This document shows, one piece after another, positions 486 through 14,365 of a stretch of 14,799 nt of DNA (its first letter is position 1; each line of letters begins with the position of its first letter). Below the pieces are notes generated by a model. That model worked only from the letters and a program-made list of their open reading frames with translations. It had not been told where the DNA came from and did no database searches. The DNA lies in the NCBI GenBank assembly GCA_002341165.1, contig DDNL01000009.1:4370-19168 (forward strand), read 5' to 3'. The position numbers were made by a program, and so were the translations under genes. Origin of the DNA: Shewanellaceae bacterium UBA2521 (GTDB taxonomy: Bacteria; Pseudomonadota; Gammaproteobacteria; Enterobacterales; Shewanellaceae).

Positions 486-1343
486 TTAACCCTCTTTTTT
501 GGTCAATAAAAATGTATAAAAGCGTTGTGCTTCATTTAAACTCGCGATGCCAAAACCACCGAGGAGTGCATGCGAATCGATCACAAAAATCTTTTTCTGC
601 TTGCCTGCAGGCGTTGCTTTAAGTGTTGGAATTTTATGAAAAATAGATTGAGCTTCTTGTTTGGTTTTATAAGATCTATTCGTCACAACGATCACATTGG
701 GTTGCATATTCAAGATCGCTTCATGCGATATCGGCTTATATTCGTTTAAGTGTGCAGCTACATTTATGCCACCAGCCAGCTCTATGATGCGATGCATGGA
801 CGTGTTCTTACCTGCAGCTCTCAGTTTTCCTTGACTATGTTTGAGTAAAAATAACACCTTTAATTTTTTATTTTGGTGCATCTGCTGTTGCAAAAGTCGG
901 TGTTCTTGTGCTCTGACTTTCTGAATTAAAATCCCTGCTTCTTTTGGCTTGCGAGCAATTTTTGCAATAGCTTCAATGCGGTGAATCAGCTGATCGATTG
1001 AATTCCCCGAAGGATACTGCACAACATGAACTCCTACTTTTTTTAATTGTCGTAGTGTATCTTCATTACCCATAGCGCTAGAGCCTAGAAGGTGGGTTGG
1101 TCTAAGTGACAATACACCTTCAGTGGATAACATCCTATGGTATCCAACATCAGGTAGCGGATTTTTTGGCTGCTGACTTGTCGTATCTACACCTACAAGA
1201 GTACTTTTGGCATCTAATGCATAAAGAATGTCTGTGATTGCAGATCCTGCACTCACTATCCGTACATTAGCGTTCGTTTGTGTAGCTCCATCATGACTAT
1301 ATGCAATCATGAGTCCCCAGAATAAAAAAATAAAATGTTTCAT
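486..1343 (-). CDS. hmuT: Periplasmic haem/iron-binding protein of ABC transporter (HmuT-like, PF01497-type)
   Basis: 285 aa with signal peptide; NVRIVSAGSAITDILYALDAKSTLVGVDTTSQQP..., LRPTHLLGS, LNMQPNVIVVTNRSY. Directly upstream of the FecCD permease. Confidence 0.88.
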   Translation of the reverse strand: MKHFIFLFWGLMIAYSHDGATQTNANVRIVSAGSAITDILYALDAKSTLVGVDTTSQQPKNPLPDVGYHRMLSTEGVLSLRPTHLLGSSAMGNEDTLRQLKKVGVHVVQYPSGNSIDQLIHRIEAIAKIARKPKEAGILIQKVRAQEHRLLQQQMHQNKKLKVLFLLKHSQGKLRAAGKNTSMHRIIELAGGINVAAHLNEYKPISHEAILNMQPNVIVVTNRSYKTKQEAQSIFHKIPTLKATPAGKQKKIFVIDSHALLGGFGIASLNEAQRFYTFLLTKKEG

Positions 1344-1477
1344 AATGCTCTCGAATCCTCCAAAAAAAGTTAATTTTGTGTTTTTTTCTTTGATTATGCT
1401 TTCAGTTTTTTTTAATTAGGTTTAATTTTTTTTAATAAAAAGTTTCAATAAAATAAATATTGAGCTTTAAATGGAAA

Positions 1478-1492
1478 TGATAACAATTATCA
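1478..1492. promoter_or_regulatory. Predicted Fur box
   Basis: TGATAACAATTATCA matches the 7-1-7 Fur consensus TGATAATNATTATCA at 13 of 14 defined positions. It lies between the divergent hmuT and hutZ/hugZ-like genes. Confidence 0.7.
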
Positions 1493-1574
1493 CTTGTGTC
1501 ATCAAATTTATTTCTCTAGTATAAAAATAGTATTAGTTGGTCACTATTTTTTTCAAAAAGAGTTTATATTTATT

Positions 1575-2087
1575 ATGAATATTCATGTAAGAAAAAAGTT
1601 AATGGATGAAATACATGACTTTAGCCAAGAACAGCAAACTTTAATGCTATCTACGGTTGATAAATTAAAGCATCCTCACATGAGTTATGCGTCTTTTGTT
1701 TCTCACAAAGATTGCTTTTATGTGCTTATTTCTACTCAAGCAAAACATACTATTAATTTATTAGATAACCCAAAAGCTGCCGTCATGTTAATTCAAGACG
1801 AAGTCTTTTCTAAACAAATATTTGCGCGTAAAAGAGTCACTTTCAATATCGATTCAAGAGTTATTCAGAGAGATACAAAGGAGTGGCATAAATATCTATA
1901 TCTCATGGAAAATAAGTTTGGAAATATAATTCGGCAACTTTCTAATTTAGCGGATTTTCTACTTTTTGAATTAAAAACTGATCAAGGAAGATATGTAAAA
2001 GGTTTTGGTAAAGCTTATAACATAAGTCATGACCCAAATGCTCAGTTTGAGCATGTAAATCGTGGTCACCAACCCATAAATAAATAA
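1575..2087 (+). CDS. hugZ: HutZ/HugZ-like haem utilisation protein (pyridoxamine 5'-phosphate oxidase-like fold)
   Basis: ATG at 1575 (MNIHVRKKLMDEIHDF...); split-barrel features and C-terminal QGRYVKGFGKAYNI. Located between haem transport genes. The track's upstream TTG start (1494) overlaps the region just after the Fur box and is less likely. Confidence 0.78.
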   Translation: MNIHVRKKLMDEIHDFSQEQQTLMLSTVDKLKHPHMSYASFVSHKDCFYVLISTQAKHTINLLDNPKAAVMLIQDEVFSKQIFARKRVTFNIDSRVIQRDTKEWHKYLYLMENKFGNIIRQLSNLADFLLFELKTDQGRYVKGFGKAYNISHDPNAQFEHVNRGHQPINK

Positions 2088-2148
2088 AGGATTCTTTTTA
2101 ATATAAATAGTCTTTGTTACTTATACTCCATTTTTGAGATTAATTTTT

Positions 2149-4440
2149 ATGATGTTTAAAAAAAATAACCTTGCAATCCTAGTAGGATTTACTTTTTGTA
2201 CACCAAAGCTCTTTGCTCAGGAAGTTCAGCAGTTAGATACTGCCCATATTCAAGCTGAACATGTTGAAGAAGAGGATGTTATTGCGCCTCAAAGCCTTGT
2301 GACATCGGACGCTATTGATCGTGATTTGATACAAGATAGTGTAGATCTCTTTAAACATGATTCTGGTGTTATCATTACAGAAGGATCACGAGGTGGTATT
2401 GCCTCTATTCAAGTTCGTGGTCTTGGTCAGGATCGAGTGAAGGTCATTATGGATGGACAGTCACAATCAACTTTTACTGTGAAGGGTGGTTCTGTCCCTT
2501 ATATTGATTCAAGTATGCAGCTTTCTGATCCTGAATTTATTAAACAAGCTAAAGCCATCAAGGGTGCGCAGTCGAGTCGTTATGGTTCTGGAGCTATGGC
2601 CGGTGTTGTTAAAATTGATACCAAAGATCCCGAAGACTTAACGAAAGGTAAACCTTTCGGTGGATACCTTAAATCTGGCTATCGATCCAAAGATGCATCC
2701 TTTAAGCAAACACTAGGGTTGGCGACAGAACATGAATCTTTTAGAAGTTTATTGATGCTATCTTATTTACAAGGTGAAGAATTACAGCGTTCAAGTGATT
2801 TCATCTATCAATCAAATGATACAAAGTATTTAGAAAAAAAGAACCTAAATATCCTAGCTAAAATGGCTTACCGTCTAAATGATAGCCATGATCTTAAAAC
2901 CTATTATCTTTCATCACATGGTGATAATGAATCTGACTTAATCCACACAACGAAAAAAGACTACCATTCTGACGACCAAAACAGAAGATACCAGATAGGT
3001 TTAAGTCACGATTGGAATCAAGACTTAACGGTGGCAGACCATATCAAAACACAAGTGACATGGTCAGAGAAAAAGAATCAACAAAAGACAAGCTGGCTTG
3101 AACTTGGATCTCAAGCTCAAGCTCAATCTCCACATGGGCATGTTCATGGGCATGGTGCAGGTGATCATGCACATGGTACAGCCGGTCATGCACATGGGCA
3201 TGTTCATGCACATGGTACAGGCGATCATGCACATGGTACAGCCGGTCATGCACATGGTGCAGGTGGTCATGCACATGGTGCGAATCAAGCAAAAACAGAT
3301 GTAAAAGATAAGTCTAAGCTTAAGGATTATCGCTATAAATCAACCCACCTTTCTATAAAAATCGATGCGGACAAGAAGAACGACGTTTTTGATACGCATT
3401 ATGGTGTAAGTTTTGATACCATCAAGAATGCGAATGATAATACCGAGTATACGACTGTTGACGGCAAAAGGTCTCAAAGGAATATTTTTTATACACCAGA
3501 AGTTAGCACAAACCTTTATGCGGGATACGTTTCAACGGATATTAAATTGTTCGAAGAACAGCTTATCGTGAAGCCATCGATAAGGTATGACTATGTTGGT
3601 ATCAAGCCCCAGAGAGCATCTTTATCAGCAGCAATCAACAAGAAAACGCCTGATTATACATTTTCGCATGTGAGTAAAGGGCTGGCTTTAGAGTGGTTGC
3701 CGACACAACAACACAAGCTTGTTTTATCTGTCAAGGAAGGTTTTAGAACTCCATCTTATCACGATTTATTTTTCCAATGGGAAAACCCGGCATATCAATA
3801 TGCAGTGGTACCTAGTGCTGATTTAAAAGAAGAGACCGCGATCAATTACGGTATAGATTATACCTATAACTCTTTGCAGTCTCGCACGTCGTTAAGGTTA
3901 TTCTACAGTGATTACGATGATTTTATTGATACAAATTCAACAAAAGAAGATGGTATATCTATACAACGTAATACCAATATTGCTAAAGCAACCATTAAAG
4001 GTATTGAGTTTTCTCATGTTGTTTATTGGCAAAGTGACTTAGCTACAGCAGAAGGATTTTCAACAGGTTTCTCTGCTCAATACTACAAAGGTAAAGATCA
4101 GCACGGAAATCGTCTCAGCAGCGTTTCGCCTTGGTCAATGAATTTAAATCTGAGCTATGATGGCGTAGGCAAGATGTGGGGTACAGGCCTTAAAACAACT
4201 TATACAGCGAAGTCAAGCAGTGTTAGTAAGAATAGCATTGAGATTCCAAGCGTAAAGATGATGGACTTTACCCTTTATTATAAGCCTATCGAGCGCATAA
4301 AATTGACGGCTGGAGTCTTCAATATTTTAGATCAAGAGGTTTACAAATGGACAGAAGTCAAAGATGCAAGTAAGCCTTTGACAGATAGAATGAAGCAAGC
4401 AGGGCGTAACTACGGTCTTTCTATTGCTTACCAATTTTAA
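2149..4440 (+). CDS. TonB-dependent outer-membrane receptor (haem/hemoprotein or ZnuD-like zinc/haem type) with His-rich insert
   Basis: Plug domain SIQVRGLGQDRVKVIMDGQSQS...IKGAQSSRYGSGAMAGVVKIDTKDP; barrel motif FRTPSYHDLFFQWENP; C-terminal ...YGLSIAYQF ending in aromatic F. Start could be 2149 or 2152. Confidence 0.9.
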   Translation: MMFKKNNLAILVGFTFCTPKLFAQEVQQLDTAHIQAEHVEEEDVIAPQSLVTSDAIDRDLIQDSVDLFKHDSGVIITEGSRGGIASIQVRGLGQDRVKVIMDGQSQSTFTVKGGSVPYIDSSMQLSDPEFIKQAKAIKGAQSSRYGSGAMAGVVKIDTKDPEDLTKGKPFGGYLKSGYRSKDASFKQTLGLATEHESFRSLLMLSYLQGEELQRSSDFIYQSNDTKYLEKKNLNILAKMAYRLNDSHDLKTYYLSSHGDNESDLIHTTKKDYHSDDQNRRYQIGLSHDWNQDLTVADHIKTQVTWSEKKNQQKTSWLELGSQAQAQSPHGHVHGHGAGDHAHGTAGHAHGHVHAHGTGDHAHGTAGHAHGAGGHAHGANQAKTDVKDKSKLKDYRYKSTHLSIKIDADKKNDVFDTHYGVSFDTIKNANDNTEYTTVDGKRSQRNIFYTPEVSTNLYAGYVSTDIKLFEEQLIVKPSIRYDYVGIKPQRASLSAAINKKTPDYTFSHVSKGLALEWLPTQQHKLVLSVKEGFRTPSYHDLFFQWENPAYQYAVVPSADLKEETAINYGIDYTYNSLQSRTSLRLFYSDYDDFIDTNSTKEDGISIQRNTNIAKATIKGIEFSHVVYWQSDLATAEGFSTGFSAQYYKGKDQHGNRLSSVSPWSMNLNLSYDGVGKMWGTGLKTTYTAKSSSVSKNSIEIPSVKMMDFTLYYKPIERIKLTAGVFNILDQEVYKWTEVKDASKPLTDRMKQAGRNYGLSIAYQF
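3131..3285 (+). repeat. In-frame tandem repeat encoding a His/Gly-rich loop
   Basis: 60-bp unit 3131-3190 repeated at 3191-3250 with 4 mismatches, plus shorter related units to ~3285. Encodes HGHVHGHGAGDHAHGTAGHAHGHVHAHGTGDHAHGTAGHAHGAGGHAHG. Confidence 0.9.
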
Positions 4441-4551: not shown

Positions 4552-4965
4552 TTGTGCTACACCTATGATGATAGGTGCTGCTTTATTGACTTAATCGTTG
4601 CATATCTAAAAAATGTTGTACGATAATGCACTAAAATTTATATGATAAAAGTAAGCGGTATGCATAATATTTCTTCAACCAATTTATTTCGTATTATTAA
4701 TAAAGCACCTAATAAAGAGATACCCAACTAACATCACTCTATTTAAGTTCATTCAACGAAACCTTTTGACTAAATCATTAAATGGATATCTTTGGAGAAA
4801 ATACAAGACATCCATAGAGTTTAGTTACACCCCAAAAATATATATTTTTTGTTTTTTTTGTTTTTATTTTGTTTTGTTTTTGTTTTTTTATTTTTTTATG
4901 TTAAGTTAAATGCGCCATCAAAATATGGTTAAAAATAAATTTAAAAAAATAAAGAGGATGTTAAA

Positions 4966-5133
4966 ATGAAAGTCATTCAAAAAGAAAATTTATCTCAAGT
5001 TTCCGGTGGTTTTTTAGAGACTCTATTTGTCTCAACTTTTATTGCTACTGTCGTCAATATGATTACAGAAGATGAACCATCTGTAATTGTCGCTTATGAT
5101 AGCAGCAAAGAAGGTTGGATTAATAATAGATAG
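4966..5133 (+). CDS. Small double-glycine-leader peptide precursor (bacteriocin/microcin-like or signalling peptide)
   Basis: Direct translation: MKVIQKENLSQVSGGFLETLFVSTFIATVVNMITEDEPSVIVAYDSSKEGWINNR* (55 aa). Strong RBS-like AAAGAGG at 4951-4957. Leader matches the LS.VSGG double-glycine consensus. Absent from the ORF track. Confidence 0.75.
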   Translation: MKVIQKENLSQVSGGFLETLFVSTFIATVVNMITEDEPSVIVAYDSSKEGWINNR

Positions 5134-5330: not shown

Positions 5331-5365
5331 ATATCGACGTATCAATAAAAATCATAAAAAAGGTG

Positions 5366-6333
5366 TTATGCTCTGTTCAGCCAGATAGTTTTGAAACGCT
5401 TTTGCTAAATATTGAGCACCTTGGTCGCTATGAAACAGCAAAGGCTCCGTCGGCTTACGCAGGTTGATGGCCATTCTTAAAGCTTCGAGCACCAAGTTGG
5501 TGTTTTGGGTAGATTAAATACGCCAGCCAATGACTCGGCGAGAATGCAAATCCGTCACCACCGCCAAATAGCACCAACCTTCTGCGGTTCGCAAGTAAGT
5601 GACATCGCCAGCCCAAGCTTGATTGACAGACTCAGGGTTAAAGCGTTGATTCAACTCTTTTTGAGCTTCTGTTTTGGGTTTAATGAGCGATAAGGGCTTT
5701 TTCGGCGCTGTTTGACCACCAAACCCAGCTTGTTCATGAGACTTCTGGTCTTATAACGGCCAATTTTAAAGCCCTCACGGCGCAAATGCTGCATCATTTG
5801 CCTTGAGCCTAAGCTTTGACGGCTGGCTTTAAAAAGCGCCTTACAACGCGATTCCAGTACTTTTTGGGCAACATAAGGCTGCGATTCTGGCTTCTTGAAC
5901 CAATCGTAAAAGGCGCTGCGACTTACTTTCAAGACCTGACACATCAGCAAAACCGGGTAAACCGCCTGATAAGTCTCAATGAAGCGGTACTTTACTTCAT
6001 TTCTTTGGCAAAAAATGCGCTGGCTTTTTTTAAGATTTCATGCTCTTGCTGCAAACGCTTATTTTCACGGCGTAAGCGCATTAATTCAGCGCGTTCTTCG
6101 GGTCTTAAAGCTCCTTCAGCCTGGTTTTTCTCGTACTTGACCTTCCAATTAGAAAGGATTTTTGCGGTCACGCCCACAGTTTCAGAAGCCTCTTTTAGGC
6201 TATAATTATGCTCTAAAACCAGTCTGACTGCTTTGTCTTTAAATTCCTGAGTATAGGTCCTATATTTGCGTTTTTCTGTCATGATCACCTCGGATTGAGT
6301 GTTTATTGTCCACCATTTAAATGTCCGGTTCAA
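5366..6333 (-). pseudogene. Decayed IS3-family transposase (orfA largely intact, orfB frameshifted and 3'-truncated)
   Basis: OrfA 5992-6300 (MTEKRKYRTYTQEFKDKAVRLVLEHNYSLKEASETVGV...RLRRENKRLQQEHEILKKASAFF). OrfB pieces in different frames: VSRSAFYDWFKKPES..., [54 protein letters not shown], and LVLEALRMAINLRKPTEPLLFHSDQGAQYLAKAFQNYLAEQSITP, then homology ends. Confidence 0.88.
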
Positions 6334-6435
6334 TTAGACCATAATAGTCTTATATTTGCGTTTTTCTGTCATGATTACCTCGGGTTGAGTTTTTATTATC
6401 CACTATTTAAATGTCCGGTTCAATTAGACCATAAT
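6261..6435. repeat. 90-bp-period tandem duplication of the IS3-like right end
   Basis: tatatttgcgtttttctgtcatgatcacctcggattgag...ccatttaaatgtccggttcaattagaccataata at 6261-6345 repeats at 6351-6435 with 5 mismatches. Confidence 0.9.
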
Positions 6436-6444
6436 ATAGCCCAA

Positions 6445-6474
6445 AAACCTGTAAATACCCTTATTTACAGGTTT
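6445..6474. repeat. Perfect 13-bp inverted repeat (hairpin)
   Basis: AAACCTGTAAATA-CCCT-TATTTACAGGTTT. Confidence 0.85.
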
Positions 6475-6587
6475 AGTAAGATATTGTGTGATGTAAATCG
6501 AGGATTAGTTATTATTATATGACTTATAGATACACTTAACATAAAATACCGCTTAAGTTGTTGTTTTTAAACGAAAAAGAGGTCGTT

Positions 6588-7682
6588 ATGGTGAGTTTTC
6601 TCCGTATTTATAGTGTTTTGGGATTAATGGTAGTAACTTCGGTATTTGCTGAAACTAAAGAGCAGCAAACGAAGCGAACTCTATTACCTATGCACCAATA
6701 TTTATCTCAAGATGAATTATGGTTATCAGCTAAAGATGACATGCATGATAATGATATTAAAACCGTTGCAGTTTATTTCAATGGGCGCACTACACAGGAT
6801 GTCACTCAAGGTCAAGTTGATACGTTTCAATATGCCATTGAAAATAAAATCCAAAATACGGGTTTTACTGTTCGAACATGTATTGAATGTACCAAACAAC
6901 GCGTCCATTTAAGTAAGAAAAAAATAAAATACAAAACCGGTATAGAAAACAACCAAGAACTGCGTTCTTTAGGTAAAAATATTAACGTCGATGCTTTTTT
7001 AGTCTGGCGTTTATCTAAAAACTTCGATGGCTATGATTTAAATATGAAGATTATTAATGCACACACAAATAAGGTTGTGTGGATTCGTAGTTTTCAAGCA
7101 GATACAGCAGCTAAAGAAATCAAAGAGATTAAATATCCTTCACAATGGGGAGTTGCTATTGGTCACTTAGGTTTAAAAGGTGAAGCAAATATTCCTTTCA
7201 ATCCAAATATTGATGGTAGTGGTCAGTGGAAAGATCGTTTTAGCACGGTTCGCGATATCAGTATTCGTTACTACACGCGTCACAAGCCAGGTGAAAATCT
7301 TCATTACGCTATTATCGGTAACTTTTTTATGAGCGTTCCAGAAGCAGACCAAACTGCTAAGGACTTGAAAGGTCTGGGCAAAGCTGACTTTTCTGTACAA
7401 GGCGTTGGTCTTGAAGGACGTGTTTTATACAACTTTTCTCAGGACACTTTTCTAAATCCAAGTGCCTATGTTGGTGTTGGTATTTCCAGTGTAAATGAAA
7501 GACAAAAAATAAGTGCACGAACAGGGTTTGAATTTGCCTTCATGGAAAATGCGTTTGTTGATGTTGGCCTCATTTATATTGACCCTGTTGAGTACGAGTT
7601 CAAAGAGAACAATTGGTCGCAAGATAAAGCAAAATTTGCTGACTCAATCGGTACAGATTTTACCATTGGTATAAGGTTTTAA
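6588..7682 (+). CDS. Putative outer-membrane protein: signal peptide, CsgG/FlgO-like N-terminal domain, C-terminal beta-barrel-like region
   Basis: MVSFLRIYSVLGLMVVTSVFAE signal; KTVAVYFNGR...LGKNINVDAFLVWRLSKNFDGYDLNMKIINAHTNKVVWIRSF resembles FlgO/CsgG-type domains; C-terminal alternating strands NPSAYVGVGISSVNERQKISARTGFEF...FTIGIRF ending in F. Confidence 0.6.
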   Translation: MVSFLRIYSVLGLMVVTSVFAETKEQQTKRTLLPMHQYLSQDELWLSAKDDMHDNDIKTVAVYFNGRTTQDVTQGQVDTFQYAIENKIQNTGFTVRTCIECTKQRVHLSKKKIKYKTGIENNQELRSLGKNINVDAFLVWRLSKNFDGYDLNMKIINAHTNKVVWIRSFQADTAAKEIKEIKYPSQWGVAIGHLGLKGEANIPFNPNIDGSGQWKDRFSTVRDISIRYYTRHKPGENLHYAIIGNFFMSVPEADQTAKDLKGLGKADFSVQGVGLEGRVLYNFSQDTFLNPSAYVGVGISSVNERQKISARTGFEFAFMENAFVDVGLIYIDPVEYEFKENNWSQDKAKFADSIGTDFTIGIRF

Positions 7683-7689
7683 GGTGAAG

Positions 7690-8193
7690 ATGATGAAATT
7701 AAACACACTTTTAATTATGACGATGGTCGCTTTAACCGCTACAGCGGCGTCGGCTGAAGAAGCGAGTTCAACGTCTGAAAAACAGCAGAAAAAATCAAAG
7801 ATGATGAATGTGAATGTGAAAGGTCAAGGCAACATGTATAACTCGGATGTTGATTTTGATTTAAACGATCCAAACGTCATCGTTACGATTGAAACAGATG
7901 AAACAGATGAAACAGAAGACAGTATGTTCGATGAGAAAAAAGCGAATAAATTGCATAGTAAAGCTCAAAAGTTAGCGCGAACGGGTCGTTACCAAGAAGC
8001 CTTAACTTTGCTTAAAGAAGCTGAGACTTTAACAGAAAACCCAGCAAAAATTTTATCGTTGCAAGGGAGCGCTCTATACAAATTAAATCGAATTGATAGT
8101 GCGAAAGATGCGTGGAATGAATCACTACGACACGACTCAAAACAGCCTGAAATTAAACGGATGTTGTCTTGGTTAGAGAAGGAGAAGTCATAA
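7690..8193 (+). CDS. Exported TPR-containing small protein
   Basis: Signal peptide MMKLNTLLIMTMVALTATAASAEE; C-terminal TPR-like KLHSKAQKLARTGRYQEALTLLKEAETLTENPAKILSLQGSALYKLNRIDSAKDAWNESLRHD. 7 nt after the previous gene. Confidence 0.65.
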   Translation: MMKLNTLLIMTMVALTATAASAEEASSTSEKQQKKSKMMNVNVKGQGNMYNSDVDFDLNDPNVIVTIETDETDETEDSMFDEKKANKLHSKAQKLARTGRYQEALTLLKEAETLTENPAKILSLQGSALYKLNRIDSAKDAWNESLRHDSKQPEIKRMLSWLEKEKS

Positions 8194-9842
8194 TGAGACA
8201 GGTTAAACATATAATTTTATGGGTATTGCTCGTATCTTGTAGCGCTATGGCACAAGACAATACATCGTTAAAACTAAAACAAATGTCGTTTTCGGCAGAG
8301 CTAGAAAGTCGTTTAAACAGCGATGTTGAGCGAGTTATTGGAACCAATAAGCACATTTTATCGGTGCGCTCTGAATTTGTTTATGATGCAAAAACTGCAT
8401 CAAACAAGACTGATTCGATCGATATGGATATATCGGATGCACCTGATTTACCTGGATTATCGGGTATGCCGGCTATCGATGAGCCGAAACCAGCTAAAAA
8501 AGCAGTAAAAGAGCCAATGATTCGTTCGTTTAATACGAAATTAATTTTGGACCAGAGTGTGACCGCTGAACAAGAACAGTTATTACGTGGTTTGTTACTT
8601 CAGAAATTAGAGTACGACCCTATGCGTGGTGACCAATTTAGCATAACGCGTGCAGAACTTGATACAGCATCAGCTGTTGATGAGATTCAATCCTTATGGG
8701 ATGAGTACTGGCCTTTAATAGCTGCCTTAGCTGCTTTATTACTATTGTTACTTATTTGGTTCATCGTACGTCGTTCATCGAAAAAGAAAGATGCTGATGT
8801 TGCACCGGTAACATTAGATAAACCAACTTCGCCAGAAGCATTGCTTGATATGAAAAAAGGTGAGTTAAAAGCGATTCGTGAAAAGCTGGTTAAACAAAGC
8901 TTAAGTGAGCCTGAAAAAACAAAAGAAGTGATGAGCAGCTTGAGTTTAAATGAGCAGAACTTGCCTATGTTGTCGTCAACATACCAAGAGCTTGGACGTG
9001 CTTTATTTACATCGATGTATCCAACTTTGGTACCCAATATTCCAAGTTATTTGAAGTATTTAGAAGAAAATCCAACAGATTACGATGGTTTAGTACGTCA
9101 CTTAACCGATTTAAATCATTTGCTTTCAGATGCGCAATCATCGGATCAATTTGAAAATAAAGTGAAGCCTTTTGGATTCTTAGAGCGCATGACGGATAAT
9201 CAAATCCGTTGGGTACTCGATGACGAATCAGATCGTGTGAAAGCGGTTGTATTATGTCAGTTAAGCACAGACAAAGCGTCTAAATTGCTAACAACTTTTA
9301 ATGCCCAGACGCAAACACAATTAGCCATTGAGATTGCTCAGTTTAAATCGATGCCGATGACAACCTTTAATGAAGTTGCTGCATCATTAGCTGTAAAAGC
9401 ACGTTCAGTGCCAGATTTTAATACGATTGCTGTTGATGGCACACAATTACTTATTAAGATGTTAGATAGTATGAATTTATCGCAAGCAGAAGCTTTGGTT
9501 TCTCAGTTGAAATCGAGCTCGCCAGATATCTATCTAGATCTTCGACAAGTGTATTACATGTTTGAAGACATCTTGAGAACACCTGCGAATGTATTGAGCA
9601 ATCACTTACGTACGATGGAACCAAAAACGTTAGCCTTAGCCCTTTCAGAATTTACGGAAGAGCAAGTGGGTAAAGTATTATCGTCATTCCCTGAGCGTTT
9701 TGTTGCGATGTTGAAGCAAGAAATTCAGCAAGTAACGGATTTAGATAAAGGCAATGTTGAATCTGCTAAGCAGCAAGTCACCTTAGTTATACGTGAAGCG
9801 TTGAAAAACAAGCAGTTCAGTATGAATGATTTAGAGGTGTAA
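8193..9842 (+). CDS. Membrane-anchored FliF-FliG-like fusion protein (putative non-flagellar rotor)
   Basis: Start ATG overlaps the previous stop (TAATG). Signal/TM N-term; FliF-like periplasmic segment FSAELESRLNSDVERVIGTNKHILSVRSEFVYD...FNTKLILDQSVTAEQEQLLRGLLLQKLEYDPMRGDQFSITRAEL; TM YWPLIAALAALLLLLLIWFIVRR; FliG-like C-term VDGTQLLIKMLDSMNLSQAEALVSQLKSSSPDIYLDLRQVYYMFEDILRTPANVLSNHLRTMEPKTLALALSEF...SFPERFVAMLKQEI...NVESAKQQVTLVIREAL. Confidence 0.8.
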   Translation: MRQVKHIILWVLLVSCSAMAQDNTSLKLKQMSFSAELESRLNSDVERVIGTNKHILSVRSEFVYDAKTASNKTDSIDMDISDAPDLPGLSGMPAIDEPKPAKKAVKEPMIRSFNTKLILDQSVTAEQEQLLRGLLLQKLEYDPMRGDQFSITRAELDTASAVDEIQSLWDEYWPLIAALAALLLLLLIWFIVRRSSKKKDADVAPVTLDKPTSPEALLDMKKGELKAIREKLVKQSLSEPEKTKEVMSSLSLNEQNLPMLSSTYQELGRALFTSMYPTLVPNIPSYLKYLEENPTDYDGLVRHLTDLNHLLSDAQSSDQFENKVKPFGFLERMTDNQIRWVLDDESDRVKAVVLCQLSTDKASKLLTTFNAQTQTQLAIEIAQFKSMPMTTFNEVAASLAVKARSVPDFNTIAVDGTQLLIKMLDSMNLSQAEALVSQLKSSSPDIYLDLRQVYYMFEDILRTPANVLSNHLRTMEPKTLALALSEFTEEQVGKVLSSFPERFVAMLKQEIQQVTDLDKGNVESAKQQVTLVIREALKNKQFSMNDLEV

Positions 9843-9844
9843 GC

Positions 9845-10627
9845 ATGATCTCCTTTAGTAACATATTTGGATTCTTATTAGCGATTGGACTCATATGTGG
9901 TTCAATCATGATGTCGACAGACAACTATTTGTTGTTTGTCAGCATCTCAAGTTTGATTATCGTTGTGGGTGGCTCTTTTGCAGCTTCTCTGGTTGGTTAC
10001 TCATTTCCGTTGGTATTCAGCGCCTTAAAAGGTATTTTACAAAACCTTATGATTGAAGATAACGACATGAAAACCAAGCACATGTCAATTCGACGTATGA
10101 CCGAGTGGAACAACACGTTTCATTCAGGCGGTATCACTGAGTTAGAAAACTCATTAACAGAAAAAGAAAAGAAAGATTCTTTTATCAAGCTAGGTATCGA
10201 TTTAATCGGTACAGGCTACAAAGGTGAAGAGTTACAAGCACTATTGGAAGAAAGCAATGAAAGCCAATCCATGCAAGACATGCGTCATGCTGAAGTGTTA
10301 AATACTTTAGCTAACTTCGCACCGGGTTTTGGTATGGTTGGTACGTTAATCGGTTTAATCGTGATGCTAGATAATTTAAGTGGCGATATGGCGGTACTAG
10401 GAAAAGGCTTAGCGGTTGCTCTTCTTACAACCTTTTACGGTGTTATTTCAGCGCAATTATTTTTTAAACCAGCTTCTATGCGTGTACAACGTCGTGTTGA
10501 GATGGAAGCACATCGTCGAGAAATGCAAATCAGAGCTTTTATGATGATGACGACTAAACGTCCTTCTCTTCACGTTCAAGATCATATGAATGGTTATTTA
10601 CCCTTTAATAAGCGCTTGGAAGATTAA
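9845..10627 (+). CDS. MotA/PomA-like stator (proton channel) protein
   Basis: 260 aa; SSLIIVVGGSFAASLVGYSF, SFIKLGIDLIGTGYKGEELQALLEE, NTLANFAPGFGMVGTLIGLIVMLDNL...LGKGLAVALLTTFYGVISAQLFFKPA. Confidence 0.9.
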   Translation: MISFSNIFGFLLAIGLICGSIMMSTDNYLLFVSISSLIIVVGGSFAASLVGYSFPLVFSALKGILQNLMIEDNDMKTKHMSIRRMTEWNNTFHSGGITELENSLTEKEKKDSFIKLGIDLIGTGYKGEELQALLEESNESQSMQDMRHAEVLNTLANFAPGFGMVGTLIGLIVMLDNLSGDMAVLGKGLAVALLTTFYGVISAQLFFKPASMRVQRRVEMEAHRREMQIRAFMMMTTKRPSLHVQDHMNGYLPFNKRLED

Positions 10628-10629
10628 TC

Positions 10630-11274
10630 ATGGCTAAGAGCAGAAAGAAAGTTGCACTAGAAGAGAGTAATAGTTGGTTACTGACGTACAGTGATGTTGT
10701 CACTTTATTGGTCGCTTTCTTTGTACTTTTAATTGCAACGTCTCAAGTAGATGAAGGTAAGTTGGAAGATGTTAAGCAAGGGTTATCAATAGTGTCGGAT
10801 TCAGAATCACAAACACCGATGCAAGATTTAAGTGAGCAAGTAGAAACGATCATTAAAGAGCAAGAGTTAGCATCAATTAAAGTTAAAAAAGTCATTGATG
10901 GTATCAAAATCGAACTTGATAGTGAAAACTTGTATGAATCTGGATCAGCATCTTTAAAGCCCGAAGGAAAAAAGATTCTCGTTGAGTTTACCAAGGCTAT
11001 TAATAGTGTTGATTTGGATCATCGTAACATTGTGATTGAAGGTCACAGTGACGATGTGCCAATCCGTAACGCTGAATTTCATAACAACTGGGAATTATCC
11101 TCAGCTCGCGCTATTGAAGTGACGTTACATCTTATTGACTTAGGTGTTGACAAATCTAAGCTACGAGCAGTTTCTTATGCTGATTCTCAGCCTAGAGCAA
11201 ATAAGGAATTACCAATCGCGGAGCAGAGACAACAAAATCGACGCGTTGTTATTTACATAAAACGAGCGATATAA
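10630..11274 (+). CDS. MotB/PomB-like stator protein with OmpA-like peptidoglycan-binding domain
   Basis: SNSWLLTYSDVVTLLVAFFVLLIATS (TM with conserved Asp) and OmpA/MotB core IVIEGHSDDVPIRNAEFHNNWELSSARAIEVTLHLIDLGVDKSKLRAVSYADSQP...RQQNRRVVIYI. Confidence 0.92.
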   Translation: MAKSRKKVALEESNSWLLTYSDVVTLLVAFFVLLIATSQVDEGKLEDVKQGLSIVSDSESQTPMQDLSEQVETIIKEQELASIKVKKVIDGIKIELDSENLYESGSASLKPEGKKILVEFTKAINSVDLDHRNIVIEGHSDDVPIRNAEFHNNWELSSARAIEVTLHLIDLGVDKSKLRAVSYADSQPRANKELPIAEQRQQNRRVVIYIKRAI

Positions 11275-11298: not shown

Positions 11299-11322
11299 GT
11301 ACGAAAACATTCGTTTTCGTAC
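11299..11322. terminator. Perfect hairpin downstream of the mot-like operon, possible weak terminator
   Basis: GTACGAAAAC-ATTC-GTTTTCGTAC, 24 nt after the motB-like stop; no clear T-tract. Confidence 0.45.
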
Positions 11323-11363: not shown

Positions 11364-11716
11364 GGCTCCGTTGCAAAAATTTACTTCGTTTTGCTTAAAT
11401 CATTGCCATCTTTACTAAAAAGAGAATTGCCTTTCTATGAGACGCACTTCTCCTAAGATGCCTTGATTTCGAAGCCATACATTCATCTGTTTCTTTCGAA
11501 ACATTCGCATCACTTCAAATCCTTTTAAGGTTGCAAAGGCTGTCTTCATGGATTGAAAACCTCGGGTAGGCTTAATCATTCTCTTTAGCTTACCATGATC
11601 CGACTCAATCCTATTATTCAAATATTTGACGTGCCTGTGCTGAATGATTTGACGACAGACCCCCTCTTTTTTAGAGCTGATAGAGCAGGTGCATAAGCTC
11701 GATCTTTATCGGATTC
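11364..11716 (-). pseudogene. IS6-family transposase remnant with one terminal inverted repeat
   Basis: End sequence GGCTCCGTTGCAAAAAT at 11364 resembles IS6/IS26-type termini. Minus strand encodes SDKDRAYAPALSALKKRG (one frame), then after a frameshift near 11665 VCRQIIQHRHVKYLNNRIESDHGKLKRMIKPTRGFQSMKTAFATLKGFEVMRMFRKKQ. N-terminal half missing. Confidence 0.88.
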
Positions 11717-11875
11717 AAAACGCGGATTTAATCGCTTAGCTTGGTAGATAGAAGGGTGTGCATCAATAATACCTTGAGCAATCTCTTTCACTTTAAAGGG
11801 TTGATAGGGATGTTGCTTTAAAATTTGGAAAATTTGATCGGTTTGACTTAACTTTGACATATCAAGCTTATGCAT
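11717..11875 (-). pseudogene. N-terminal fragment of a gene with a winged-helix/HARE-HTH-like domain, disrupted by the IS6 remnant
   Basis: MHKLDMSKLSQTDQIFQILKQHPYQPFKVKEIAQGIIDAHPSIYQAKRLNPRF then switches to transposase sequence. Confidence 0.45.
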
Positions 11876-12001
11876 CAAAATGAAAAGGCTTCTGATTATA
11901 CAACTGATATAAATAAGAAAAAAGTCACACCTTAAATTTGATAGATATTTTCAAATAGTTGCCGATATAGCTTTCATGCTATCCAAGAATAAAATTTTTT
12001 T

Positions 12002-14365
12002 ATGTTAAATACTAAGAATTATATATATTTTATTTTTCTTTTTATATTAGGCTGTGCAGACAGTTCTGAATTTAATATTATTGAAGAAATGCAAGGACAA
12101 CCTGCTCAAGGAGGACAACCTGATCAAGGAGGACAACCTGATCAAGGAGGACAACCTGACCAAGGTGGACAACCTGATCAAGGAGGACAACCTGACCAAG
12201 GTGGACAACCTGACCAAGGAGGACAACCTGACCAAGGAGGACAACCTGACCAAGGAGGACAACCTGACCAAGGAGGGCAACCTGACCAAGGAGGGCAACC
12301 TGACCAAGGAGGGCAACCTGACCAAGGAGGAAGCAACTCGAACCCTCAAAAATTTATTTTTTTCAACCAAAACAATCTTGAAAGTGATACCACAGGAGCT
12401 TTAAGTGGTACCGTGCACTTTGCTCAAAGCACAATCATGCCATCTAAAAATAAAATAAAAGATGATATCCAACCGCACCTTGTTTCTCAGCGTAAAGCTT
12501 TAGTTCTATTTAAGTCTCCAGATTTAGCAGAAGATAAAAACTTAAAAATGAGTATCTATGATAAAAATAATACACTTATTTATCAAAGTAATATGAACCA
12601 TCCCTCGAAATTACCTGCTATTGAGGGGGAATCTATAGAACCTATTTCTTTCAAAAATTTTGAACCTAATCAAACTCTAAATCTCAATACTCAAGCCCAA
12701 TTAAATGATCTTAAAGAAGATCTTTCGGGACAAAGATTAAGCTATTTCTTTAATACATTTGACTTTATTCATGTTCAAACCCAAGATGGAATACATATCG
12801 ATGACTTTCATCTACCTCTTCTCGCTAAAGGTTCTGAAAAGCATATACGTTTTTCATCTAGAGCTGGCTATGATTCAACCATTTACTTTTCAGGCTTAAA
12901 AAGATCCCTTAAAACGAATTTTGTCTTCGATTTTAAGTTCCAGAATCAAACTTGGTACATGAAAAGTCATATGAATCGTATAAAATACGGTTATTTTTGG
13001 AGTGCCCCCTTACCTAAGCAACATGTAAAACCTGGTATAAGTATTCGATTTACGCAAAATGGAGAAAATGGTCTGCTCAGTGCTCATGACATCAAAGTAG
13101 GTCCTGAAATCGAGTTACTTTTACACACCATTGACTTAGGGTTTCTGACTCCTTATCGAGATGAGTTTGACTTTCAAAAAAAAGATAAAAATCATATTGA
13201 GTATTATCAAACTATTCCCATAACAAAACTCATTGTGTCACGATATGAACCTCAACACTTTAAGACTGTAGGCTTACCCGATGGAACAGTCTACAACAGT
13301 AAAAGTGCAACCGACGGCGGTGTCTATACAGGTGATATGCGAAAAATTGGAAAAATTCTTATATCACATGGTATTAATTTAGCTAATTATGGTCTGACTT
13401 CATCTCATCCAACGAGTGAAAGTCCGCACAAATATATGGCTAATCAGATTACAATTCATAACTCTCAAGGTATCTATACAGATAAAGACTCAAAAGCATC
13501 AAAAAAAGTGATTCATGGCTTATCTGGAGGCAATGGTATGCTTACCTTGTCCGATTCTGAAGGTAATGAATTCAGTCATGAAATGGGGCATGCACTAAGT
13601 TTAGGACATTACCCAGGTGGCTTTGAAAGAAGTGTGCATCGCCCAGCACATATGATCAACTCAACTTGGGGGTGGGATAGTGTTCGTAATGAATTTACAC
13701 CTAATTTCGAGCATTATCCTACGAATAAACCTACCAAATATGATGGAGGCGCGAAAGATAAAGATAAAGGGAAGACTGTACAGCCTTTTCATGGACATAG
13801 TTTTGGCAAAGACTCTATGGGAGATGGAAGTCCACTCTATTCGAATCATTACACTTTATTTACTCCCTATACCATGAATAAAATGCAAAAATTTTTGGAG
13901 CGAACACCTCGCTTTGATAAGAATTCATCCACGGGCTTTTCTGTATGGGATGCTAATAAACAGGAATATAGAGAGGCTGCTAATAACGTATCTTCTTCAC
14001 GTAGAAAAGACTTCGGTGTACCTGTAGTCACTTTAGTGGGATATTATGATCCAACTAATACCATTAAATCCTTTGCCTATCCTGCTTTATACGGTAGCTA
14101 TGGTCATACTTATTATAGCTTCCCTAAATGGTTCAATAGCAAATGTCAGCTCACCGTCAAAAACGCTCGTAGAAAAAAAGTAACATTCTTCTTAAATGAC
14201 CGTGTCATTTTAAGAAAAAATATGAATAAATATCATGTCAATATTGCGCAATCATTTAAACCTACGAGTTACGATATAAAATGTCATGGTAAATTTGTTT
14301 TGCCTTCGTTTGCTATTAAACCTAAGAAATTTAATTTAAAAACCCATATTGTAGAAAGCCCTTAA
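12002..14365 (+). CDS. StcE/TagA-like zinc metalloprotease (peptidase M66 type), predicted lipoprotein
   Basis: Lipobox-like FILGC at residues 14-18. HExxHxxGxxH zinc motif in GNEFSHEMGHALSLGHYPGGFERSVHRPAHMINSTWGWDSVRNEFTPNF, closely resembling the StcE active-site segment. Confidence 0.88.
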   Translation: MLNTKNYIYFIFLFILGCADSSEFNIIEEMQGQPAQGGQPDQGGQPDQGGQPDQGGQPDQGGQPDQGGQPDQGGQPDQGGQPDQGGQPDQGGQPDQGGQPDQGGQPDQGGSNSNPQKFIFFNQNNLESDTTGALSGTVHFAQSTIMPSKNKIKDDIQPHLVSQRKALVLFKSPDLAEDKNLKMSIYDKNNTLIYQSNMNHPSKLPAIEGESIEPISFKNFEPNQTLNLNTQAQLNDLKEDLSGQRLSYFFNTFDFIHVQTQDGIHIDDFHLPLLAKGSEKHIRFSSRAGYDSTIYFSGLKRSLKTNFVFDFKFQNQTWYMKSHMNRIKYGYFWSAPLPKQHVKPGISIRFTQNGENGLLSAHDIKVGPEIELLLHTIDLGFLTPYRDEFDFQKKDKNHIEYYQTIPITKLIVSRYEPQHFKTVGLPDGTVYNSKSATDGGVYTGDMRKIGKILISHGINLANYGLTSSHPTSESPHKYMANQITIHNSQGIYTDKDSKASKKVIHGLSGGNGMLTLSDSEGNEFSHEMGHALSLGHYPGGFERSVHRPAHMINSTWGWDSVRNEFTPNFEHYPTNKPTKYDGGAKDKDKGKTVQPFHGHSFGKDSMGDGSPLYSNHYTLFTPYTMNKMQKFLERTPRFDKNSSTGFSVWDANKQEYREAANNVSSSRRKDFGVPVVTLVGYYDPTNTIKSFAYPALYGSYGHTYYSFPKWFNSKCQLTVKNARRKKVTFFLNDRVILRKNMNKYHVNIAQSFKPTSYDIKCHGKFVLPSFAIKPKKFNLKTHIVESP
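12110..12325 (+). repeat. Twelve tandem 18-bp repeats encoding (GGQPDQ)12
   Basis: GGAGGACAACCTGAYCAA-type units counted directly; in frame with the metalloprotease. Confidence 0.95.

Follow-up and report, generated by a model that had tools for sequence, protein, structure and literature searches.

A five-gene operon joining a natural FliF-FliG fusion to its own MotA/MotB-type stator: a candidate envelope-spanning rotary machine

The window analysed here is a stretch of 14,799 nt from Shewanellaceae bacterium UBA2521 (assembly GCA_002341165.1, contig DDNL01000009.1, positions 4,370 to 19,168 of the forward strand), with a G+C content of about 30-42%, whose DNA makes up the first 14.8 kb of a 121.6-kb Tara Oceans metagenome contig (ERZ976263 k127_1120744) and recurs in JGI, NCBI and Logan assemblies. 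Between positions 6588 and 11274 it carries five co-directional open reading frames (ORFs) on the + strand, which we call g1 to g5. The first, g1 (6588-7682, 364 aa; "X" where gene orders are given), has a signal peptide, a periplasmic domain resembling FlgO, FlgT_M and LpoB, and a probable C-terminal outer-membrane beta-barrel. It is followed by g2 (7690-8193, 167 aa), a small exported protein whose linker is acidic and variable (ETD repeats) and precedes two C-terminal tetratricopeptide repeats (TPR), and by g3 (8193-9842, 549 aa), a fusion of parts of the flagellar proteins FliF and FliG and the presumed rotor subunit. The last two genes encode a MotA/PomA-type stator A subunit (g4, 9845-10627, 260 aa) and a MotB/PomB-type stator B subunit (g5, 10630-11274, 214 aa) with a plug, a channel aspartate, Asp22, and an OmpA-like peptidoglycan-binding domain. 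An initial annotation, made from the DNA letters and the ORFs, had described 7 nt between the first two of these genes, an overlap of 1 nt between the next two and 2 nt at each of the last two junctions, and both the ORFs and the junction letters bear this out (g1/g2 TAA-N7-ATG, g2/g3 TAATG, g3/g4 TAA-GC-ATG, g4/g5 TAA-TC-ATG), with a purine-rich Shine-Dalgarno-like motif at every junction. It had also seen no gene for an export apparatus, rod, hook, filament, FliM or FliN; no flagellar gene, of these or any other kind, accompanies the operon in the window or in the 5 kb that follow it on the source contig (20 kb read).

The protein g3 is a natural head-to-tail fusion of FliF, from its third ring-building motif (RBM3) to its C-terminus, with FliG, of which an N-terminal remnant, the middle domain and the C-terminal domain are present. 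According to Pfam and an alignment with T. maritima FliG, residues 336-539 (9198-9809) comprise the middle domain of FliG and its C-terminal domain with the torque helix, and they match FliG_M at 1e-16 (PF14841, 61 bits, cut-off 25) and FliG_C at 5e-18 (PF01706, 66 bits, cut-off 23.3). The N-terminal half consists of a signal peptide of about 20 residues, ending in AMA followed by Q, about 150 periplasmic residues and a single transmembrane (TM) helix at residues 172-196 (8706-8780), the equivalent of FliF TM2, which is placed by a hydrophobicity scan, an AlphaFold helix at 164-196 and the FliF alignment. Residues 24-153 (8262-8651) form an RBM3-like alpha-beta-beta-alpha-beta domain, as indicated by AlphaFold, family conservation and the FliF alignment. 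The AlphaFold model was built from 11 homologues and has a mean predicted local distance difference test score (pLDDT) of 66, with about 80 in the secondary-structure elements used; its helix 25-49, strands 54-64 and 108-119, helix 125-138 and strand 148-153 correspond to a ring-building-motif fold. A disordered insert (65-107) holds a near-invariant LPGLSG motif and an RGD motif closes the domain, LPG being kept in 83-85 and R, G and D in 74-84 of the 87 family sequences. Searched against the PDB with Foldseek, the model matched FliG at 7e-10, while its N-terminal part matched FliF RBM3/S-ring chains at about 1e-3 with a probability of 1.0, and SpoIIIAG more weakly.

Profile searches point in the same direction. 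The single g3 sequence reached PDB FliG at 1e-14 and the 87-member family profile at 1e-50, and the profile also matched Salmonella FliF 224-558 (E 1.2e-14), Vibrio FliF 254-579 (6.5e-12) and FliG_N (3e-4). Its best PDB match was an engineered Vibrio FliF-FliG fusion (8z4d, E 3e-54). Against E. coli MG1655, the profile matched FliF 225-550 at 2.6e-16 and was collinear with FliF and then FliG, running through RBM3, TM2, the FliG-binding C-tail, FliG 5-64 (weak) and FliG 110-325; this collinearity means that the natural junction between the FliF tail and FliG_N is kept within one chain. The family motif LPGLP aligns with the FliF collar motif vPGAL, and aRGDkl..F aligns with kRGDSLnVvnsPF of FliF. 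TM1, RBM1 and RBM2 are absent, with the signal peptide in their place; the alignment begins at about FliF residue 225 and the Pfam model YscJ_FliF gives no match. In fact, fliF and fliG adjoin and overlap in flagellar operons, as seen in MG1655, so that their fusion would be a simple event. The annotation of g3 as a FliF/FliG fusion is thus right at the level of both sequence and fold. It is not a canonical FliG: it scores 74 bits against the full-length equivalog TIGR00207, below the cut-off of 226.7, and it is membrane-anchored with 549 aa, compared to the soluble FliG of about 330 aa.

The residues by which FliG works are unevenly kept. The FliM-binding motif EHPQR reads E345-S-D-R in g3 and the family keeps the Glu alone (77/87). 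The MFxF hinge is retained, with F457 in 76 of 87 sequences, and so is G416. Within the torque helix, R502, equivalent to E. coli R281, is Arg or Lys in 78 of 87; E510, equivalent to D289, is Glu or Asp in 43 of 87, and an acidic residue at 509/510 (D288/D289) is kept in the family.

g4 has the four-TM fold of MotA_ExbB (PF01618), which it matches at 7e-24 with 84 bits, and its nearest solved structures are C. sporogenes MotA (3e-28) and PomA (1e-23), with about 230 residues aligned. The TM3 and TM4 prolines P160 and P209, equivalents of E. coli P173 and P222, are invariant in all 49 module homologues. g5 matches MotB_plug at 1e-14 (54 bits), OmpA at 1e-16 (61 bits) and MotB in the PDB at 3e-26, and D22, N153-W-E-L-S, R160 and R204-R205 (peptidoglycan binding) are invariant in 44 of 44 module homologues. 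Judged from sequence, g4 and g5 are an intact flagellar-type MotA/MotB stator in which all catalytic residues are conserved. Both lie below the equivalog cut-offs, g4 with PRK09109 as its best (122 bits vs 237) and PomA at 120 vs 341, and g5 with MotD (149 vs 283). As for the rotor-facing charges of MotA, the position of PomA R88 (E. coli R90) is Arg in 44 of 49 family members and that of PomA E96 (E. coli E98) is Glu in 45 of 49; taken with the torque helix of g3, both halves of the two primary rotor-stator charge pairs appear to be conserved at the family level. In a 2025 survey of MotAB relatives, stators bearing both a plug and an OmpA domain are treated as a flagellar clade (PMC12505986); the module stator has both, yet it sits in a non-flagellar operon.

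The remaining two genes encode the outer partners. No Pfam or NCBIfam family matches g1 above threshold, and profile searches of the PDB with g1 gave no significant match. Its homologues, a single family by homology across all lineages, share a signal peptide, an alpha/beta N-domain and a C-terminal half ending in ...YDLTLGxRF (...DFTIGIRF in the window), and 34 of 40 have a terminal Phe. When 35 members were scanned singly, sub-threshold matches of the N-domain were obtained to FlgO (23), FlgT_M (12), LpoB (9) and CsgG (4), together with one match each to the outer-membrane protein models OMP_b-brl and HP_OMP. The window protein itself scores 14.2 bits against Pfam FlgO, below the 22.6 threshold, and the best E-value among homologues is 7e-4. 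The C-terminal half is probably an outer-membrane barrel, given the signal peptide, the Phe-ended C-terminal signature usual for outer-membrane beta-barrels and the weak outer-membrane protein matches. A near-invariant CxEC motif in the N-domain (C98-I-E-C101 in the window, 6879-6890; the kept residues are C98, E100 and C101) could be a periplasmic disulfide or a metal site. The repeated FlgO and FlgT_M matches recall the Vibrio H/T rings (FlgO-FlgP-FlgT and MotX-MotY), although all of them are below curated thresholds and, unlike those rings, g1 would have an outer-membrane barrel of its own and no FlgP, MotY or FlgT is found in the module.

g2 matches TPR_2 at 2e-8 and carries a signal peptide in the family alignment; in several relatives outside the Vibrionaceae a Cys stands just ahead of the mature region, in a lipobox-like context. 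It adjoins X in every gene order that contains X. In being small, exported and encoded together with a MotB-type protein, this TPR protein resembles the scaffolds PflA/PflB, MotK and MotC, TPR proteins contacting MotB having been described (PMC13023049). Unlike them, it matches only generic TPR proteins in a PDB profile search, with no specific link to MotX. Its linker contains a perfect 9-nt tandem repeat in three copies (TGAAACAGA, 7890-7916) that encodes the acidic ETDETDETE and is a likely site of length variation. Of the remaining domain assignments in the initial annotation, those of a TPR protein, of MotA and of MotB with a peptidoglycan-binding domain hold, through the TPR_2, MotA_ExbB, MotB_plug and OmpA matches. 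Its outer-membrane g1 fits the signal peptide, the terminal Phe and the weak outer-membrane protein matches, while the barrel is a prediction for a protein with no family above threshold.

An ion-driven inner-membrane motor of the MotA/ExbB family with a dedicated partner and outer-membrane components is a plan shared with Tol-Pal, Ton, GldLM/PorLM, AglRQS and Zorya. The Tol-Pal system includes a small periplasmic TPR protein, CpoB, and the present module has parts parallel to it: a 5:2 motor, a transducer in the inner membrane, an outer-membrane protein whose alpha/beta periplasmic domain is of the LpoB/CsgG/FlgO type, an OmpA-like binder of peptidoglycan and a CpoB-like TPR protein. The genes could therefore be read as a Tol-Pal/Ton-like energiser in which the 5:2 motor acts on the g3 assembly and a force or conformational signal passes to the outer-membrane X-TPR pair, for outer-membrane or peptidoglycan homeostasis; the lack of a conserved surface or secreted cargo gene nearby would suit this. 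We consider it unlikely. The module differs from all of these systems in having a flagellar-type stator, with a plug, an OmpA-like domain and a torque-generating cytoplasmic domain, rather than one of the TolQ/ExbB type, and in having a presumed FliG ring as its partner. A Tol or Ton transducer binds its motor within the membrane, whereas the partner here is a cytoplasmic FliG with a conserved torque helix, and RBM3 domains build rings. Membership in the Tol/Exb group itself was rejected, since the scores of g4/g5 are low (tolQ 16 bits, cut-off 221; exbB 19.6, cut-off 206; ExbD 13.6) and the five-gene block contains no TolA- or TonB-like gene. The same was concluded for Zorya. A Zorya-type anti-phage system, with a MotAB-like motor signalling envelope perturbation to effectors, might be suspected from the ZorB models, which match g5 at 5e-21, and from the position of the window copy between insertion sequence (IS) remnants and beside toxin genes. 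Nonetheless, the ZorB match is generic MotB homology, ZorA gives a low 13.9 bits across 83 residues and its long tail is missing from g4, none of the other PADLOC defence models, ZorC/D included, matches g1-g3, and in the main metagenomic clade the module lies in a fixed housekeeping neighbourhood; this explanation is highly improbable.

The five genes form a conserved unit across deep divergence, with permuted order. Close homologues of g3 occur in Aliivibrio fischeri, A. finisterrensis, A. logei, Vibrio penaeicida, V. nigripulchritudo, V. agarivorans and Vibrio sp. SCSIO 43136. On chromosome II of A. fischeri all five genes stand in the same order, the g3 counterpart being VF_A0185, with identities to the window proteins of 35, 35, 49, 61 and 58% for g1 to g5. 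A repeat of the homologue search with the 87-sequence g3 profile returned the same Vibrionaceae proteins and no others, a scan of genome collections, which used back-translated patterns of the close clade, reached Vibrionaceae only, and tblastn against plasmids gave no match. When 1.84 billion representatives were searched exhaustively with a profile, 116 clusters were found at E<1e-30. The great majority have 550-780 aa, a signal peptide and, 160-340 residues in, a TM helix, and canonical FliG, with its length of about 330 aa, appears only lower in the list; the rotor architecture is common to more than 100 clusters at 50% identity. A metagenome scan with a narrower alignment added 53 further loci. 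Among 35 distinct loci with at least 2.6 kb upstream and at least 2 kb downstream, 33 carry all five families on one strand, as detected with local hidden Markov models, which is far beyond chance.

Distant members, at 17-30% identity, carry the same five families. Their named sources include three metagenome-assembled genomes, assigned to Saccharospirillaceae/Pseudomonadales, to Pseudomonadota and to Bdellovibrionota, and one locus (L021) is placed in a Bacteroidota-related group because it adjoins a type IX secretion PorZ equivalog (352 bits, cut-off 260). With FG standing for the FliF-FliG gene, the order is X-TPR-FG-MotA-MotB in the Pseudomonadales-type contigs L016-L019, FG-X-TPR-MotA-MotB in L020 and L021, X-TPR-MotA-MotB-FG in L077 and MotA-MotB-X-TPR-FG in L071, so that the permutations shuffle three blocks, [X-TPR], [FG] and [MotA-MotB]. 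No sixth gene is conserved across clades, the conservation of flanks being synteny within one clade, and no flagellar genes were seen in the flanks of about 7-10 kb around distant loci. The module is conserved and clearly under selection.

It is necessary to ask how far such a module is separate from the flagellum. Spare stators have precedents, in Pseudomonas with MotCD and in Shewanella and Aeromonas with their dual stators, and the five genes might likewise be spare flagellar parts: an alternative stator, an accessory FliG-like protein and scaffolds that serve an ordinary motor under high load, on surfaces or with other ions. The only named hosts with known flagellation are indeed flagellated Vibrionaceae, g4/g5 are nearest to the flagellar PomA/MotP/MotD families, the N-domain of g1 is weakly like the Vibrio H-ring proteins FlgO and FlgT, and motA2/motB2 of A. 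fischeri (VF_A0186/VF_A0187), which are the stator genes of its module, were lowered together with fliA in one published biofilm transcriptome. However, insertion mutants in motA2 or motB2 have normal soft-agar motility, motA1B1 (PomAB) being essential for it, and FlrA, the master regulator of the flagellum, does not activate motA2B2; the neighbouring FliF/FliG-like gene was not discussed in that study (Brennan et al. 2013, PMC3948606). A membrane-anchored rotor of its own, without RBM1/2 and with EHPQR reduced to a Glu, would be hard to fit into an existing MS- or C-ring, and even very distant lineages keep the five genes together, with no flagellar gene in the flanks read. We regard the spare-part explanation as quite unlikely. 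The initial annotation had named a full flagellum with merely displaced paralogues as the finding that would undo it. A. fischeri does have a full flagellum elsewhere in its genome; the reading of the genes as merely displaced paralogues was rejected, because the mutants swim normally and FlrA does not activate the pair, because the rotor has lost RBM1/2 and all of the FliM motif except Glu, and because the operon has its own outer-membrane and TPR partners.

The reading that we favour, with a probability of roughly 0.55, is that the module is an autonomous rotor-stator machine derived from the flagellar motor core. The g3 subunits, with a periplasmic RBM3/collar, one TM helix and a cytoplasmic FliG, would probably assemble through RBM3 into a membrane ring as FliF does, giving a stripped MS-ring with FliG covalently attached and FliG_C on its cytoplasmic face. 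Lacking RBM1/2, such a ring would hold no export gate. Units of the MotA5B2 type, made of g4 and g5, would be anchored to peptidoglycan by the OmpA-like domain of g5; ions passing the Asp22 channel would let them push the FliG torque helix and turn the ring one way, as a rotor without FliM/FliN presumably has no switching of direction. g1 and g2 may form the outer-membrane and periplasmic part, either as a static scaffold for the stator or as the receiver of the motion, that is, the load. By analogy, a static scaffold of this kind would resemble the Vibrio H/T-ring proteins and the TPR proteins PflB, MotK and MotC. Our guess is that the output would be mechanical work on the envelope rather than swimming. 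The broader picture, a widely distributed envelope-spanning rotary nanomachine in which a FliF-RBM3/FliG ring with its own MotAB would be linked by the TPR protein to an outer-membrane protein and perform non-swimming work (envelope mechanics, surface movement or outer-membrane remodelling), is offered tentatively, at somewhat less than an even chance.

That a natural FliF-FliG fusion could work is indicated by engineered ones: artificial fusions assemble and rotate (as cited in PMC4768692), and the ring of a Vibrio FliFG fusion has been solved (PDB 8z4d). The engineered Salmonella and Vibrio fusions (PDB 8z4d/8z4g) have the same covalent FliF-to-FliG topology as g3, but contain full-length FliF and work in a complete flagellum. 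The closest natural precedent is found in the Chlamydiaceae, organisms without a flagellum in which a truncated FliF is fused to a FliG domain (Bergeron 2016, PMC4768692). That fusion has about 330 aa, two TMs, an RBM2-like region and FliG_M only, with no RBM3 and no MotAB alongside (PMC4768692), whereas g3 keeps RBM3, TM2, the C-tail and the N-remnant, M and C parts of FliG, and has its own stator genes. Compared with the flagellar motor core, the likeness extends over FliF from about 225 to 550, FliG, the plug, channel Asp and OmpA-like anchor of the stator, and the primary interface charge pairs, which appear to be kept in the family. The module is unlike that core in lacking FliF TM1, RBM1 and RBM2 and all of EHPQR but the Glu, in having no export gate, ATPase, rod, hook, filament, P/L rings or FliM/FliN nearby, in joining FliF and FliG in a single chain with a cleavable-looking signal peptide, and in being dispensable for swimming in A. 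fischeri.

Several observations weigh against an autonomous machine of this kind. All hosts whose flagellation is known are Aliivibrio or Vibrio and all are flagellated. The equivalents of FliG K264 and R297 are lost in g3, and in g4 of the window His93 (10121-10123) replaces the interface Arg found in 44 of 49 relatives, Glu101 being present; this could mean a tuned, weakened or pH-sensitive rotor interface in the window lineage. The barrel of g1 was assigned by reading the protein letters, an AlphaFold run with three near-identical sequences having given an unusable pLDDT of 29. Not every locus is complete: L007 and L008 have FG, a long TPR protein and X (FG-TPR-X) without adjacent MotAB, L076 has TPR-FG without adjacent MotAB, a 212-aa protein and then a TPR protein of 945 aa coming next, and L078 (4603-12262) has TPR-FG-MotA-MotB without X, with a MoxR-DUF58-DUF4381-VWA (Bat-like) cluster directly after it. 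Moreover, no adhesin, channel or secreted substrate beside the module is conserved across loci.

Perhaps the module has no mechanical output at all and is a regulated device for ion flux or sensing, in which the g3 ring would only dock and un-plug the MotAB channels. The conserved MotB plug speaks for this, as do the OmpR-type two-component genes upstream of the module in Aliivibrio and in the Saccharospirillaceae-type locus L018, and regulator-like ORFs in V. penaeicida and V. nigripulchritudo. Yet the conserved charges of the torque helix and MotA interface and the peptidoglycan anchor are what torque generation needs, and a flux device leaves no role for dedicated outer-membrane and TPR proteins; we consider it very unlikely. 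The response regulator and sensor kinase lie directly upstream in the same orientation in A. fischeri (L005, 4120-6179) and L018 (4901-6863), and the similar ORFs of V. penaeicida and V. nigripulchritudo stand at 3887-5110 of L012 and 3190-4413 of L014. They are candidate regulators of the module. In the window an IS remnant occupies the position held elsewhere by the two-component genes.

To our knowledge, every well-studied FliG ring is part of a flagellum, and all the non-flagellar 5:2 motors known to us (Tol, Ton, Gld/Por, Agl and Zorya) use a partner other than FliG. In the present module a flagellar-type stator is combined with a minimal FliF/FliG rotor, and nothing else in it is flagellar. 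The anatomy given in the initial annotation is supported and extends to a widespread five-gene family; the mechanical interpretation, a flagellar rotor-stator core repurposed without a flagellum, is plausible. The initial annotation had called the machine undescribed, and a full-text literature search found no description of it; most subscription journals were outside its scope, and a prior description is possible. If an autonomous rotor-stator machine is the true reading, the module would be a new use of bacterial rotary torque and a natural minimal system for studying rotor-stator coupling without a switch or export apparatus. It would also bear directly on a long-standing question, the usefulness of a partial flagellar motor, as a living "part-flagellum" independent of type III secretion and of a filament. 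A. fischeri offers a genetic model in which it could be tested at once, through motA2/motB2 and the three genes upstream of them; swimming is the only trait examined there so far.

With regard to transcription, a weak sigma-70-like promoter candidate upstream of g1 (6519-6547, + strand) has 9 of 12 consensus matches, in a region where the number of such sites equals the shuffled expectation. A scan found no terminator-like site on the + strand inside the five-gene block. Just after the last stop codon, a perfect 10-bp hairpin (11299-11322, + strand) marks the probable end of the transcript; intrinsic termination there is not certain because no T-run follows it. Rfam and tRNA scans of the window gave no matches.

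The module is flanked by IS remnants on both sides, which hints at horizontal acquisition in the window organism. Upstream, on the minus strand, lies a degenerate IS3-family element (5360-6440) with an HTH_Tnp_1 ORF at 5992-6288, rve fragments being called in L002, its twin contig. The end of the element, which takes in the start of orfA, is duplicated in tandem (90 nt in two copies, 93% identical, 6257-6436), and it is followed by a perfect inverted repeat, CCTGTAAATA-ccc-TTATTTACAGG, at about 6449-6472. Just 3' of the operon, two small overlapping ORFs on the minus strand (11415-11878) include one that weakly matches the end of an IS240/IS6-type DDE transposase.

Further downstream, positions 12002-14365 encode a StcE/TagA-like M66 metalloprotease (Peptidase_M66 5e-53, TagA, StcE beta-sandwich) whose N-terminal signal contains a Cys and is lipoprotein-like, and in which QPDQGG is repeated 13 times in tandem (18 nt x 13.2, 12094-12331). 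It is followed by an S41 peptidase and then by a MARTX-like toxin (RtxA, Peptidase_C80) that exceeds 3900 aa, in the range 14650-19842 of L001. These three genes suggest a host-associated lifestyle. On the other side of the module, positions 4843-4902 and 4966-5133 hold an unusual T-rich tract of (T4-8 G) units and, shortly after it, a 55-aa ORF that starts with MKVIQKENLSQVSGG followed by F; this ORF resembles a double-glycine leader peptide of the bacteriocin or microcin kind and has no Pfam match. Finally, positions 486-4440 hold a haem/iron uptake cluster composed of a periplasmic binding protein, a HugZ-like PNPOx protein and a TonB-dependent receptor, one loop of which is a His-rich repeat (HGHxHGxG...) encoded by 21/60-nt tandem repeats at 3131-3281.

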